NCBI GenBank assembly: GCA_016219325.1 | Contig: JACRNH010000003.1 | Location: 45,123-109,122, forward strand | DNA length: 64,000 nt | Direction: 5' to 3' | Source of the DNA: Candidatus Collierbacteria bacterium | GTDB taxonomy: Bacteria; Patescibacteriota; Microgenomatia; UBA1400; JACPES01 | Notes under the pieces: model-generated | The model's database searches: none | What the model was told of the DNA's origin: nothing | Seen by the model: only the letters and a program-made list of their open reading frames with translations | Shown: piece by piece, positions 12,657-33,719 of the stretch | How positions within the stretch are numbered: position 1 is the first letter of the stretch | How the letters are laid out: every line of letters begins with the position of its first letter | Made by a program: the position numbers and the translations under genes

Positions 12657-14024
12657 ATGAAAATCAAATTAATTCCCATAATTGGCCTTGAAGTTCACGT
12701 GGAATTGAAGACGAATTCCAAAATGTTCTGCGGATGTAAAAACGATCCGTTTGGGGCTTCAAAACCGAATATTTACACCTGTCCGGTGTGTTTGGGTTTG
12801 CCGGGAGCCCTGCCGGTGCCGAATAAGAAAGCGATTGAATTAACCGTAAAATTAGGCTTAGGTTTGGGTTGTGAAATAAATCGAGAATCCCGGTTTGACC
12901 GGAAACATTATTTTTATCCGGATCTGCCGAAAGGCTATCAGATCAGCCAATATGAGAAACCGTTCGCGTCTGGCGGTGAGCTGAAATTCAGAATTCAGAA
13001 TTCAGAATTCAGAATTATAAGAGTTAGAAGGGTGCATTTGGAAGAGGATACGGGGAAATTGCTGCACCGGAAAATAGACGGTGAAGAAGTTTCTTTGATT
13101 GATTTTAACCGTTCCGGCGTGCCATTGGCGGAAATTGTGACCGAACCGGATATCAGGTCGGCGCAGGAAGCAAAAGAGACGGCTAAAAAAATTTATCAGA
13201 TTGTTAGGGCCTTGGGCGTGTCTGATGCGGATATGGAGAAGGGAAGCATGAGGTTGGAAGCGAATATCTCTCTCTCCGAGATAAAGGAAAAAGGAAAAAG
13301 GAAAAAGGAAAAAGGGGAACTTCCGGACTATAAGGTGGAGATCAAGAATATTAATTCTTTTAGATTTATGGAAAGGGCGATAAATGCGGAAATTGAGAGA
13401 CAGGAAAAAATTCTTGAGTCCGGTAAAAAAGTGCAACAGCAAACTTTTGGTTGGGATACGGAAAAACAGGAGTTGAAACCGCAAAGGGTGAAAGAAGAAG
13501 CCGCGGATTATCGGTATTTTCCGGAACCGGATATACCGCCAATCGTTTTGTCAGACGATTGGATATTAAAGATCAAAGATCAAATATCAAAATTGCCGGA
13601 AGAAATATATGAAGGATTGATTAGAACTGGAATTGCGGCAGCGGCGGCGAAGGTGATTGTGGGAGATAGGGAGTTAGCGGAGAAAATTAATGGGATAATT
13701 AGGGAAATTAAGGAGATTGGAGATATTAGGGATATTGGAAACTGGGCGTTGCATCATCAGGAGATGATTAAGGAAAAACCGGTGGATGAATTAATTTCTT
13801 TATTTAAGCAAGGGAGAGAAGGGTTAGTTTCAGATTCCGGCCAACTTAAACGATGGGTTAAGGAAGTTGTTGAAGACAATGTTCAAGCGGTGAATGATTA
13901 TAGAAAAGGCAAAGAAGCGGCATTAATGTTTTTGGTTGGACAGGCGCAAAGATTGGCTAAAGGGAAAGCTGATGTTAGTTTGGTTAAAGATATGTTAAGC
14001 TCAAAATTATCAAGTGATTTATGA
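12657..14024 (+). CDS. gatB: Glu/Asp-tRNA amidotransferase subunit B
   Basis: N-terminal IGLEVHVEL...CPVCLGLPGALP GatB signature. ATG 12657 is preferred over the ORF-track TTG at 12648. It has in-frame micro-repeats at 12986-13017 ((CAGAATT)4), 13283-13316 (AAGGAAAAAGG x3) and 13691-13740. Confidence 0.85.
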   Translation: MKIKLIPIIGLEVHVELKTNSKMFCGCKNDPFGASKPNIYTCPVCLGLPGALPVPNKKAIELTVKLGLGLGCEINRESRFDRKHYFYPDLPKGYQISQYEKPFASGGELKFRIQNSEFRIIRVRRVHLEEDTGKLLHRKIDGEEVSLIDFNRSGVPLAEIVTEPDIRSAQEAKETAKKIYQIVRALGVSDADMEKGSMRLEANISLSEIKEKGKRKKEKGELPDYKVEIKNINSFRFMERAINAEIERQEKILESGKKVQQQTFGWDTEKQELKPQRVKEEAADYRYFPEPDIPPIVLSDDWILKIKDQISKLPEEIYEGLIRTGIAAAAAKVIVGDRELAEKINGIIREIKEIGDIRDIGNWALHHQEMIKEKPVDELISLFKQGREGLVSDSGQLKRWVKEVVEDNVQAVNDYRKGKEAALMFLVGQAQRLAKGKADVSLVKDMLSSKLSSDL

Positions 14025-31260: not shown

Positions 31261-31337
31261 GTAATGAGTAGAAAGTAATGAGTAATGAATAAAATAACAT
31301 TATTTTCTACTTTCTATTTTCTACTCATTATTTTTTT
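31259..31337. terminator. AGTAATGAG/TAGAAAGTA-family inverted-repeat hairpin followed by a T7 tract (a likely intrinsic terminator after atpC)
   Basis: GAGTAATGAGTAGAAAGTAATGAGTAATGAAT ... ATTATTTTCTACTTTCTATTTTCTACTCATTA then TTTTTTT immediately before the ruvC ATG. Confidence 0.6.
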
Positions 31338-31826
31338 ATGATTATCTTAGGCATTGACCCCGGATTTGCCAGAATGGGATGGGGAGTAATCAGCAAAAAC
31401 GGCGCAAAATTTTCACTGGTAGCTTACGGATGTCTGGAGACTTCTGCCGATGTCGGTTTGCCAGACAGGTTGGAAATGATATTTGACGGGATTCTCAAAG
31501 TAATAAAGAAGTACAAGCCGGATTTGGTCGGCATAGAAACTCTTTTTTTTAACACTAACGCCAAAACCGCGGTCAAGGTAGGGGAGGCGAGGGGAGCGAT
31601 ATTGGTGGCGCTGAAAAAAGCCGGAATTAAATCAGCGGATCTGACTCCTCTTCAAGTGAAACAAGCTGTAGCTGGTTACGGCCGGGCGGAAAAATCTCAA
31701 GTCCAAAAAATGGTTAAGACCTTGTTAAATCTAAAAGAAATCCCCCATCCTGACGACGCCGCCGACGCTTTAGCCATCGCCCTCGCTGCTGGATCAATTG
31801 TAAAGTATCAGATACTTTACAACTAA
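31338..31826 (+). CDS. ruvC: Holliday junction resolvase RuvC. Its last 8 codons are supplied by a palindromic repeat.
   Basis: N-terminal ILGIDPGFARMGWGVI with the catalytic Asp, and C-terminal DDAADALAIAL. The terminal IVKYQILYN is encoded by the 25-bp palindrome at 31798-31822. Confidence 0.85.
   Translation: MIILGIDPGFARMGWGVISKNGAKFSLVAYGCLETSADVGLPDRLEMIFDGILKVIKKYKPDLVGIETLFFNTNAKTAVKVGEARGAILVALKKAGIKSADLTPLQVKQAVAGYGRAEKSQVQKMVKTLLNLKEIPHPDDAADALAIALAAGSIVKYQILYN
31798..31822. repeat. Palindrome copy 1 (TTGTAAAGTATC A GATACTTTACAA), forming the 3' codons of ruvC
   Basis: Perfect 12-bp arms with a 1-nt spacer. Confidence 0.9.
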
Positions 31827-31846
31827 TATTTGCAAATATAGTTCGT

Positions 31847-32575
31847 TTAATCTTCAGCATCAATCGCAACTGGACGAAGAAGCGTTGAATCTGAATTAGA
31901 AAATTGAGCCTCAACAAATTCGCGGTATTCAGTAGGTCTGTTTCTGAATAATCCAATAACAAACTTTGGCTTTGAAATAGAGAAAGGGGTTTTAGTCGGG
32001 AAGAGATAGTAGTCGTTAATATTGCTCCATTGCCAATTTTCCGGTTTGTTAACCAGTCCGGCCATGGTAGGGTTAATATGGATATATCTGGATACATGCA
32101 TGACTCGTTCGTCCGTATCTAGTTCTTTGATCTTAAACCTTCCCTGAAATAGCGGCCCAACTCGTTGATTATCGTGATTAAATTTATGAGCGTATGTTAT
32201 TCCAATCCGTTTCATGAATTCCGAGATTGGAGACTGTAAAGTATCTGATACTTTACAGATGCGAATAAGGAAATGGAAATGGTTTGGCATTAAACAATAA
32301 GCCAGAAGTTCGATAATGTTTTTGAACATACCGTTGCCTTTAGGATCAGCTGTAAACGAAACAGGCTTATTTTTCATTCTCCAGCGCATCGAAAATGGCG
32401 ATTGATGCTGTAAGGTATCAGATACTTTACAGTCAGGGAAGCCAATTAAAAAATAACGCAGAATTTCGCGGAAGTCAAAGTAGTCAGACTCCCTTTTGAA
32501 TATTTTCCGCCTATTTACCCCGCGGTTATAGACATGATAAATTCCGTTTTCGTGATAATCAGGCCTAATATACAT
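31847..32575 (-). CDS. tnpA: IS200/IS605-family Y1 (HUH) transposase / REP-associated tyrosine transposase-like protein
   Basis: YHVYNRGVNRRKIF N-terminal motif, HUH motif (MPNHFHFLI) and the catalytic Tyr region (RYIHINP). The ORF-track start at 32836 is a stop-free upstream extension, so ATG 32575 is used. Confidence 0.75.
   Translation of the reverse strand: MYIRPDYHENGIYHVYNRGVNRRKIFKRESDYFDFREILRYFLIGFPDCKVSDTLQHQSPFSMRWRMKNKPVSFTADPKGNGMFKNIIELLAYCLMPNHFHFLIRICKVSDTLQSPISEFMKRIGITYAHKFNHDNQRVGPLFQGRFKIKELDTDERVMHVSRYIHINPTMAGLVNKPENWQWSNINDYYLFPTKTPFSISKPKFVIGLFRNRPTEYREFVEAQFSNSDSTLLRPVAIDAED
32234..32258. repeat. Palindrome copy 2 (CTGTAAAGTATC T GATACTTTACAG), in-frame inside tnpA and encoding CKVSDTLQ
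   Basis: Perfect 12-bp arms. Confidence 0.9.
32408..32432. repeat. Palindrome copy 3 (CTGTAAGGTATC A GATACTTTACAG), in-frame inside tnpA and encoding CKVSDTLQ
   Basis: 12-bp arms with 1 mismatch. Confidence 0.9.
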
Positions 32576-32586
32576 ATGTGGATAAG

Positions 32587-32609
32587 TGTAAAGTATCAGA
32601 TACTTTACA
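32587..32609. repeat. Palindrome copy 4 (TGTAAAGTATC A GATACTTTACA), 12 nt upstream of the tnpA ATG
   Basis: Perfect 11-bp arms. Confidence 0.9.
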
Positions 32610-32696
32610 AGAAGACAAGATGCGAGAACGTCTATCGGTTGGATAGAACTATCGGGTGAGTAGAATAAAGCGACCAGAATAATAATTTTACGAAAT

Positions 32697-33113
32697 GTGG
32701 TATATTTGCTACATATGTCAGTAGACGAGTTACGGATAAGTTTAGCCGATGTCCTTGGGTCTAAGAAATGTAGCCAGGACCAGTGGATGATCGCACCGCA
32801 TCTTACAAAGTCCGGAAAAGACCTTAGAATTGCCACGTCTGTAAAAAATCATTTTGATAAGCTGCACCGAGAACAGCCTTTTAGAAGTTCGACATCAGCC
32901 CTTCGCGATGACCTTCGGCAATTAACGCTTACTGAAACAAACGTAATTTTAGATTCATTTGAATCTCTTAAGCCTGAAGAGTCTCAGAATCAATTATTAT
33001 ATCCAGCTTTCAGAGAAGTCATAATCGCCGCTCATGAGGCAGACGTAGTTGATAAACATCGACTATTGGGAAAATTTGCCGTTTCGCTTCTTCGATTGGT
33101 AGATAGCGAATAA
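32697..33113 (+). CDS. hypothetical protein between the IS element and ruvA
   Basis: A 138-aa ORF with no recognizable motifs. Confidence 0.3.
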   Translation: MVYLLHMSVDELRISLADVLGSKKCSQDQWMIAPHLTKSGKDLRIATSVKNHFDKLHREQPFRSSTSALRDDLRQLTLTETNVILDSFESLKPEESQNQLLYPAFREVIIAAHEADVVDKHRLLGKFAVSLLRLVDSE

Positions 33114-33149: not shown

Positions 33150-33719
33150 GTGATAGGGTTCCTTTCGGGAAAACTGCTTGAGTCTGATTTAAACACTATA
33201 ATTATTGATGTTTCGGGAGTGGGATATTTGGTTCATCCCTCAGCTTCTGTTTTCGGAAAAAATTTATCTGTTGGGGATAAAATTAATTTACCGGTTTATA
33301 CCCATGTCCGTGAAGATCAAATTACTTTATTCGGATTTTCATCAAAAGCAGAGTTAGACTTATTTAAGCAATTGCTGACAGTTTCCGGAGTCGGTCCGAA
33401 ATCGGCACTGACAATTATCGGCAGCGGCACAGCTCCTGAAATTAAATCAGCCGTTTCTAACGCCGATGTGGATTTTTTCCAATCAATTTCCGGAATCGGC
33501 AAAAAAACTGCCCAGAGGATAATTATTGATCTGAAAAGTAAAATCGGTGAAACCAAAGAATTGGATTTGTCATCAACTGACATCAAACATCGGAAAGATT
33601 TGTTGTCTGCCCTAAAAACAATGGGAATTACTGCCGATGAGGTCAAAGACGTGATCAAAAATATTGACGCTAATTTGCCGATTCAGGAGCAGATCAGACT
33701 GGCGCTAAAAAGAATATGA
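33150..33719 (+). CDS. ruvA: Holliday junction branch migration protein RuvA
   Basis: N-terminal MIGFLSGKL...GVGY OB-fold start and HhH motifs ([18 protein letters not shown]). Confidence 0.85.

Follow-up and report, generated by a model that had tools for sequence, protein, structure and literature searches.

In the repetitive extragenic palindromic (REP) systems of bacteria, the gene for a REP-associated tyrosine transposase (RAYT) is flanked by its cognate REPs, and the two components co-evolve at orthologous loci (PMC2817692). The RAYT acts on single-stranded hairpins; the way in which REP hairpins multiply and keep pace with the evolution of their transposases is unresolved in the classical systems (PMC8266576). 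In-frame intragenic REPs and Rickettsia palindromic elements (RPEs), among them the GTAG/CGTC REPs, are frequent in repair genes and sometimes provide stop codons (PMC3733652). Here we describe a RAYT-like cassette between ruvC and ruvA of Candidatus Collierbacteria in which copies of the cognate palindrome lie not only at both ends of the unit but also, in frame, within the transposase gene itself. The window analyzed is a stretch of 64,000 nucleotides (contig JACRNH010000003.1, positions 45,123 to 109,122, forward strand). In the literature searched, which is incompletely searchable, we found no description of cognate REPs inside RAYT genes or of RAYTs in Patescibacteria. Cognate palindromes inside the transposase's own coding sequence are apparently an undescribed arrangement.

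A pattern search of the window allowing up to three mismatches returned four copies of TGTAAAGTATCNGATACTTTACA, a 23-nt perfect palindrome, all within 812 bp, and no further match in the remaining 63 kb; shuffled sequence gives an expectation of 0. The two terminal copies, like the internal ones listed without strand, occupy 31799-31821, an exact palindrome 3' of the tnpA stop that overlaps the final ruvC codons, and 32587-32609, 11 nt 5' of the tnpA start codon. They stand in direct orientation (loop T and T) and delimit a hairpin-to-hairpin cassette of 811 bp (31799-32609). The two internal copies, at 32235-32257 (site 2) and 32409-32431 (site 1), are both read in frame as CKVSDTLQ. The former falls in the loop from the HUH strand to the next helix, and the latter, which has a single stem mismatch (G for A), in a long disordered loop preceding the HUH strand. 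Folded as single-stranded DNA (ssDNA), the copies give -6.6 to -8.5 kcal/mol (z -5.3 to -6.8), and the mismatched copy gives -4.7. A sequence-only reading of the window had proposed a Y1/HUH unit that has its own palindrome at both ends and further copies of it, in frame, in tnpA, and the four matches in 812 bp bear this out. It was also right that two of the three reading frames of the palindrome are free of stops; the third contains TAA in direct reading. The in-frame CKVSDTLQ segments stand, but not their supposed length of exactly 24 nt, since both are 25-nt palindromes (CTGTAAAG..CTTTACAG). Likewise, tnpA does lie between ruvC and ruvA as claimed, with its true start codon at 32575 and with a second open reading frame (ORF), of 138 aa, in the same interval.

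The tnpA gene (31847-32575, minus strand) encodes a 242-residue Y1/HUH tyrosine transposase whose product is 100% identical to a Candidatus Collierbacteria protein. It matches Pfam Y1_Tnp (PF01797, E 1.1e-7) and carries the motifs YHVYNRG, HFHFL, in which HFH is the HUH signature, and RYIHINP, which holds the catalytic Tyr; H101, H103 and Y166 are invariant across TnpA alignments. The best and sole NCBIfam match is REP_Tyr_transpos, at 62.3 bits, below the cut-off of 80, and the sole sequence match in the PDB is 4ER8, the Escherichia coli RAYT bound to a REP hairpin. An AlphaFold model (mean predicted local distance difference test score, pLDDT, 79.8) retrieves 4er8_A first in Foldseek (E 4e-6), with the IS608, ISDra2 and IS200 transposases ranking lower. 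Judged by sequence and predicted fold, TnpA appears closer to RAYT than to IS608-type TnpA. In the model, site 1 has pLDDT below 50 for residues 51-62, and site 2 is the loop joining strand E101-108 to helix H118-137. The gene is under strong purifying selection, with a ratio of nonsynonymous to synonymous divergence (dN/dS) of 0.05-0.12 at dS values from 0.7 to saturation. It is the only gene of its type in the window, and each protein likewise sits on one locus, within a family that is large (3,798 proteins matched in a protein search at E <= 0.001).

The nearest described system by sequence and fold is the REPtron (E. coli yafM, PDB 4ER8; Stenotrophomonas, Pseudomonas). Like it, the cassette places an apparently single-copy Y1/HUH gene between cognate palindromes, its transposase has RAYT-like C-terminal motifs (YIHxNP..W.WS), palindrome and protein co-evolve, and inheritance is vertical. 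In contrast to the REPtron, TnpA falls beneath the NCBIfam cut-off, and the palindrome pairs along its whole length, so that an unpaired GTAG head is absent and GTAA or NNAG lies within the paired stem. Moreover, the two cognate REPs of a REPtron are inverted, whereas the flanking copies here are about as often direct as inverted, and a genome carries tens to hundreds of REPs, compared to the handful of copies here. Finally, cognate copies lie inside the transposase ORF across a Patescibacteria-wide family, a feature for which the papers searched gave no counterpart. With RPEs and intragenic REPs the cassette shares short palindromes that are read in frame in functional genes and whose termini give stops; intragenic REPs are often found in DNA repair genes, and here the host is ruvC. 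It differs from those elements in that the copies reside chiefly in the gene for its own transposase, measure just 23-25 nt and return at the same positions throughout a protein family. The host genes seen are few, where RPE-like elements occupy many, and at least one host-gene copy, in a YfhO-like gene discussed below, adds no length.

Internal copies recur throughout the family. Close relatives of TnpA (59-87% identity) carry segments at both of the same protein positions, in the variants KVSDTL, KVSDTF, EVSDTS and KGSDP(F/Y), and within each protein the variant agrees between site 1 and site 2. The variant segments are encoded by perfect palindromes identical to the element's own non-coding terminal copies, the hairpin types being AAAGTATC/GATACTTT, GAAGTATC/GATACTTC and AAGGATC/GATCCTT. 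Because they vary as matched palindrome variants, the CKVSDTLQ segments are best read as DNA-level hairpins and not as a native peptide motif. Every close relative read has the layout hairpin, gene with one or two internal hairpins, hairpin. Distant relatives from metagenomes (29-43% identity) have the same layout built from unrelated palindromes: CCTGCAGGGCCAGGCCCTGCAGG four times in L072, TGACAGGGTCTCGCCCTGTCA four times in L090, and similar arrangements in L058, L063 and L073. A member of an intermediate clade, L013, has a short-stem version of the hairpin.

We surveyed the 70 family loci with both flanks present and found matched terminal palindromes at 36, at least one internal copy at 19 and at least two internal copies at 6; reversed and complemented ORF controls gave 0 matches. 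These prevalence figures are lower bounds because the survey thresholds miss short stems; a first hairpin screen, with a minimum stem of 8, passed over elements with short stems, L013 among them. The density of hairpins is 1.14 per kb in the ORF versus 0.037 per kb in 137 kb of flanks. Site 1, the variable loop preceding the HUH strand, is occupied in all subfamilies; site 2, directly after the HUH strand, is occupied in the subfamily of the window; and a third site, the loop after YIHxNP, is occupied in the 'MPxKN' subfamilies, with a few copies in the C-terminal tail of TnpA. The reading frame of the internal hairpins varies between elements. Relative to the homologs P0004, P0006, P0011 and P0014, the site 1 copy adds 4-8 residues. 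Two other proteins, P0021 and P0032, were considered as hairpin-to-hairpin deletion variants and rejected as mere gene fragments. The sequence-only reading had taken the internal copies for insertions into tnpA, and here the TnpA alignment contradicts it: relatives carry the CKVSDTLQ segments too. The internal copies are a family-wide feature of variable loops rather than recent private insertions.

Within an element the copies agree, and the differences between elements take the form of paired changes in both arms. Two syntenic elements at 80% nucleotide identity (L005 and L010) differ in hairpin type at 4/4 positions. In a quick neighbor-joining tree the GGATC type has arisen in three separate clades, and in all three it occupies site 1 as well as site 2. 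The nucleotide sequence of the internal copies is also constrained. Among the window element, L093 and L094, synonymous differences at codons for conserved residues number 114/173 outside the hairpins versus 3/15 inside (p = 0.0012); of those three, one is the loop base and one lies in a flanking codon. The synonymous sites of the hairpins are frozen in this way, with those of site 2 invariant in orthologs, despite a dS of at least 1.1 among the three genes.

Loops within an element are identical or exact reverse complements in 74/77 comparisons (35 identical, 39 reverse complement), and this holds for 3- and 5-nt loops too. Flanking pairs across the family are mixed, with 19 inverted and 17 direct. 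The hairpin thus has an orientation, and it flips as a unit. In five elements (L001, L003, L005, L008 and L094) a complete hairpin directly adjoins a partial arm of 7-13 nt, and site 2 of several proteins contains tandem degenerate remnants. We read these partial arms and remnants as scars left where a fresh copy landed in, or took the place of, an older hairpin. Such a process would explain both the stability of position and the concert of sequence.

The host locus records a long residence. In the window, ruvC (31338-31826, plus strand; Pfam RuvC over residues 3-150) draws its C-terminal tail, VKYQILYN and the stop, from the hairpin region and ends in AAGSIVKYQILYN before the stop (..GSIVKYQILYN); as the sequence-only reading had it, the final 8 codons are covered by the hairpin. 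RuvC homologs end in GSI(K/R)L at 156-157 residues, and the window protein is 5-6 residues longer. Four other loci (L093, L094, L095 and L096) are orthologous, with TnpA 85-87% identical, and in the contigs long enough to judge (L095 and L096) the order is atpD, atpC, ruvC, tnpA on the minus strand, a small ORF, ruvA and ruvB. Three of them (L093, L094 and L095) each keep all four hairpins. Because these orthologous loci carry it, the cassette is old at ruvC-ruvA, and it is vertically inherited there in related Collierbacteria. In another Collierbacteria genome, L097, ruvC is followed by 47 bp and then ruvA, without tnpA and the small ORF. The search of relatives for an empty site thus did yield a junction without the unit, but not a clean one: a slightly degenerate solo hairpin, TGTAAAGTATCAGATACTTTAA, is left at the ruvC end (L097 2971-2992). 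The TAA of the hairpin is the ruvC stop in L097 and L095. The window has a junction shorter by 5-8 nt, which lets ruvC read through the hairpin in an open frame. The ruvC-proximal copy is the terminal hairpin of the unit, and it outlives the unit.

Two of the orthologous loci need a caution. When L094 is compared with L095 (as its reverse complement), about 960 bp are identical, followed by about 15% divergence from the C-terminal part of tnpA into ruvC. The pair is either a recombinant mosaic or a chimeric assembly, and we rejected the idea that the two are near-identical strains. Since the loci are mosaic, their hairpin differences are not recent polymorphisms. The remainder of the interval is taken up by the 138-aa ORF (32697-33113, plus strand), which lies between the cassette and ruvA (33150-33719, plus strand, 3' of the cassette and followed by ruvB). 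It has no Pfam, NCBIfam or PHROG match, and its homologs (35-39% identity; L093, L095 and L096) are all at the ruvC locus only. We considered it as cargo of the mobile unit and rejected this on those two grounds; moreover, it is not found in hairpin-bounded units of other contexts. A promoter and terminator scan gave nothing exceeding chance. Upstream, the atpC-ruvC gap (31262-31335) contains an AT-rich inverted repeat (AATGAGTAGAAA ... TTTCTACTCATT) and a T-run that resemble an intrinsic terminator, which the consensus scan did not call. Elsewhere in the window, a short AATTCAG tandem array occupies 12985-13016.

The unit also moves, if rarely. Two elements, L001 and L007, share 84.7% nucleotide identity over exactly the hairpin-to-hairpin stretch of about 810 bp and have unrelated flanks; L012 aligns with L001 at 74.7% within the same limits, again with unrelated flanks. 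Because homology stops at the hairpins, the hairpin-bounded cassette is the unit that relocates, and by these alignments relocation appears to happen at low frequency. In L005 and L010 the cassette is embedded in an rRNA operon, with the 16S rRNA gene to one side of it and a tRNA to the other. On the 16S side of these two cassettes is a LAGLIDADG ORF that is probably intron-encoded; L005 also has a group II intron domain match and the start of a 23S rRNA gene at the end of the locus. Three candidate signs of targeting or movement were discarded. First, the flanks of the window element, L001, L007, L012, L005 and L010 have no shared target motif outside the hairpins, and the TTAC target suggested by the sequence-only reading is unsupported, as these flanks have neither a common TTAC nor a conserved tetranucleotide. 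Second, integration next to tRNA genes does not hold: there is no tRNA near the window element, and L001 adjoins one, others not. Third, between L007 and the 99%-identical L008 the flank switches exactly at the upstream hairpin, which we regard as suggestive only, since L008 begins with a Nextera adapter (positions 1-19, GATGTGTATAAGAGACAG) and may be chimeric or an assembly artifact.

Outside these loci the palindrome is scarce. The exact 23-mer occurs at only 4 loci in 185,579 GTDB species genomes, with no copy in viral contigs, and all four window copies are in the unit, in agreement with the expectation that it is not a genome-wide REP. One exact copy lies inside a gene for a YfhO-like membrane protein (L002 7081-7103, JACPES010000003.1), in the same genome as the emptied site of L097. 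There the palindrome sits on a native xKYQILxN motif that is conserved down to 35% identity, and it adds no residues; we had considered it as a clean in-frame 24-nt insertion and rejected this for that reason. Among the orthologs L002, L098 and L099 (73-78% protein identity), 27 nt are identical and the neighboring synonymous sites differ. Plain insertion fits this copy less well than does overwriting of a near-palindrome that was there by chance (KYQIL = AAGTATCAGATACTT). The same contig also has two GC-rich 33-nt perfect palindromes (AAGGCCTGGCC..GGCCAGGCCTT; L002 1291-1323 and 1584-1616), in frame in a gene for a 517-aa membrane protein; they are a separate family, resembling the hairpin found in L060. 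Palindromes lying in frame within genes may be common among these Collierbacteria genomes.

The explanation that we favor for this anatomy, its family-wide recurrence, the concerted evolution, the nucleotide-level constraint, the loop flipping, the half-arm scars, the vertical inheritance and the occasional relocation, at a probability of roughly 0.55, is a REPtron-like cassette in which the cognate hairpins undergo renewal where they stand, presumably by the transposase, with the internal copies persisting in permissive loops. On this view one gene for a RAYT-like Y1/HUH ssDNA transposase, bounded by two cognate 23-nt palindromes, has passed vertically down a Collierbacteria lineage at ruvC-ruvA. 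By analogy with the known biochemistry of the family, the palindrome, folded as an ssDNA hairpin, would be the putative TnpA recognition site, and the two in-frame copies in tnpA would be further putative sites of the same kind, placed in loops where the structure is permissive. Copies of the hairpin, facing either way, would replace or land in an existing hairpin, and repeated renewal of this kind would keep the copies of an element alike, so that they change together as specificity drifts. We infer that TnpA binds or cleaves the hairpins and that it performs the renewal in cis, at its own locus. The internal copies would then probably be tolerated by-products rather than selected regulators.

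Several points weigh against this explanation. TnpA binding, cleavage and hairpin replacement are all inferred. Recognizable palindromes are present, by the survey criteria, at only about half of the family loci. At site 2 the same stem mismatch is present in L001 and in L007, and homogenization is therefore not fast or instantaneous. Because the YfhO-like copy sits on a native motif, plain insertion of 24 nt is not the sole route by which a copy arises. The frozen synonymous sites could reflect a selected function of the internal copies and not turnover. Paired changes in the two arms are equally expected for a duplex site bound by a symmetric dimer. Finally, palindromes can become perfect, and can flip, with no transposase at all when replication switches template at quasi-palindromes.

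The most serious competitor, which we consider possible though clearly less probable, is that the internal hairpins are selected cis-regulatory sites at which TnpA, an RNase or the ribosome acts on the mRNA or on transcribed ssDNA, restraining transposase expression. Synonymous-site conservation would follow from such autoregulation, and the stem sites are indeed frozen although dS exceeds 1. The roughly 30-fold enrichment of hairpins in the ORF is measured against flanks that include permissive intergenic DNA, half of the elements with terminal palindromes have internal copies, and the upstream hairpin, 11 nt from the start codon, is in the position of a ribosome-binding site. However, many members are intact without internal copies, including the close homologs P0004, P0006, P0011 and P0014 at site 1; the positions, frames and orientations of the hairpins vary; and the degenerate tandem remnants at site 2 resemble debris of turnover.

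A more speculative proposal, to which we give somewhat less credence still, is that of a 'hairpin writer', in which a domesticated Y1 transposase mainly overwrites hairpin-like ssDNA with its own cognate hairpin. Its targets, which we put forward just as tentatively, would be two or three landing pads in its own gene together with fortuitous near-palindromes of the host, such as KYQIL in the YfhO-like gene. If this were true, the specificity of the enzyme and all of its sites would evolve in concert, and the copies in the ORF might double as an autoregulatory sensor.

It is unlikely that the palindromes are duplex operators for a symmetric dimer, whether a TnpA repressor or a host factor, or that they are kept perfect and flipped purely by replication template switching at quasi-palindromes. 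Perfect symmetry and paired arm changes would suit a dimer-bound duplex equally well, and template switching at inverted repeats classically produces loop inversion and arm duplication. Neither version explains why the same element-specific 17-23-mer stands at four sites hundreds of base pairs apart, why the type switches jointly at all four, or why the homology of relocated units stops exactly at the hairpins. Moreover, the known relatives act on single-stranded hairpins (PMC8266576).

Still less probable, and largely refuted, is a classical autonomous IS200/IS605 insertion sequence of the IS608 type, inserted 3' of TTAC, with the internal palindromes as recent insertions of miniature derivatives. 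The cassette does resemble IS608, ISDra2 and IS200 in its Y1/HUH fold and Y1_Tnp domain, its HUH and Tyr motifs, its boundaries, which are hairpins in place of terminal inverted repeats, and its presence in unrelated contexts, and a related genome has ruvC directly before ruvA. It is to this extent, as a hairpin-bounded Y1 unit, that the IS200/IS605-like label of the sequence-only reading survives; membership in the IS608 type does not, with best matches to RAYT, one copy in the window and vertical descent. In elements of that class each end, left or right, has its own distinct, imperfect subterminal hairpin that works with guide and cleavage tetranucleotides, whereas here both ends are identical perfect palindromes. 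They insert 3' of a fixed tetra- or pentanucleotide (TTAC for IS608) and leave clean empty sites, whereas here no TTAC or other target motif is common to the flanks outside the hairpins and the emptied site of L097 keeps a hairpin. In addition, the protein is more distant from theirs than from RAYT, there is one copy per window or contig where such elements have several near-identical copies per genome, the element is long-lived at one locus (vertical inheritance with dS above 1), and orthologs as well as other subfamilies conserve the internal copies. That CKVSDTLQ is simply a native peptide motif of the family, its palindromy incidental, is already refuted despite the recurrence of the segment at the same two places in relatives at 59-87% identity, since KVSDTL, EVSDTS and KGSDPF are chemically dissimilar and each comes from a perfect palindrome matching the element's terminal copies, the palindromes of other subfamilies are entirely different and read in other frames, and the synonymous sites are frozen.

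The family amounts to a minimal REP-type system, in which a single gene is accompanied by four to seven hairpins and copies are easily tracked. In classical REP/RAYT systems hundreds of copies mask individual events, whereas here scars, flips and concerted switches of type are visible, and orthologous filled and emptied sites are available to compare. The locus indicates that the enzyme of a mobile element can tolerate its own putative DNA recognition site within the sequence that encodes it, and may even make use of it there, and it offers a clear case of nucleotide-level selection overriding codon choice inside a gene. The same hairpin shapes the end of a host repair gene, providing the ruvC stop in some genomes and an extra tail in the genome of the window.

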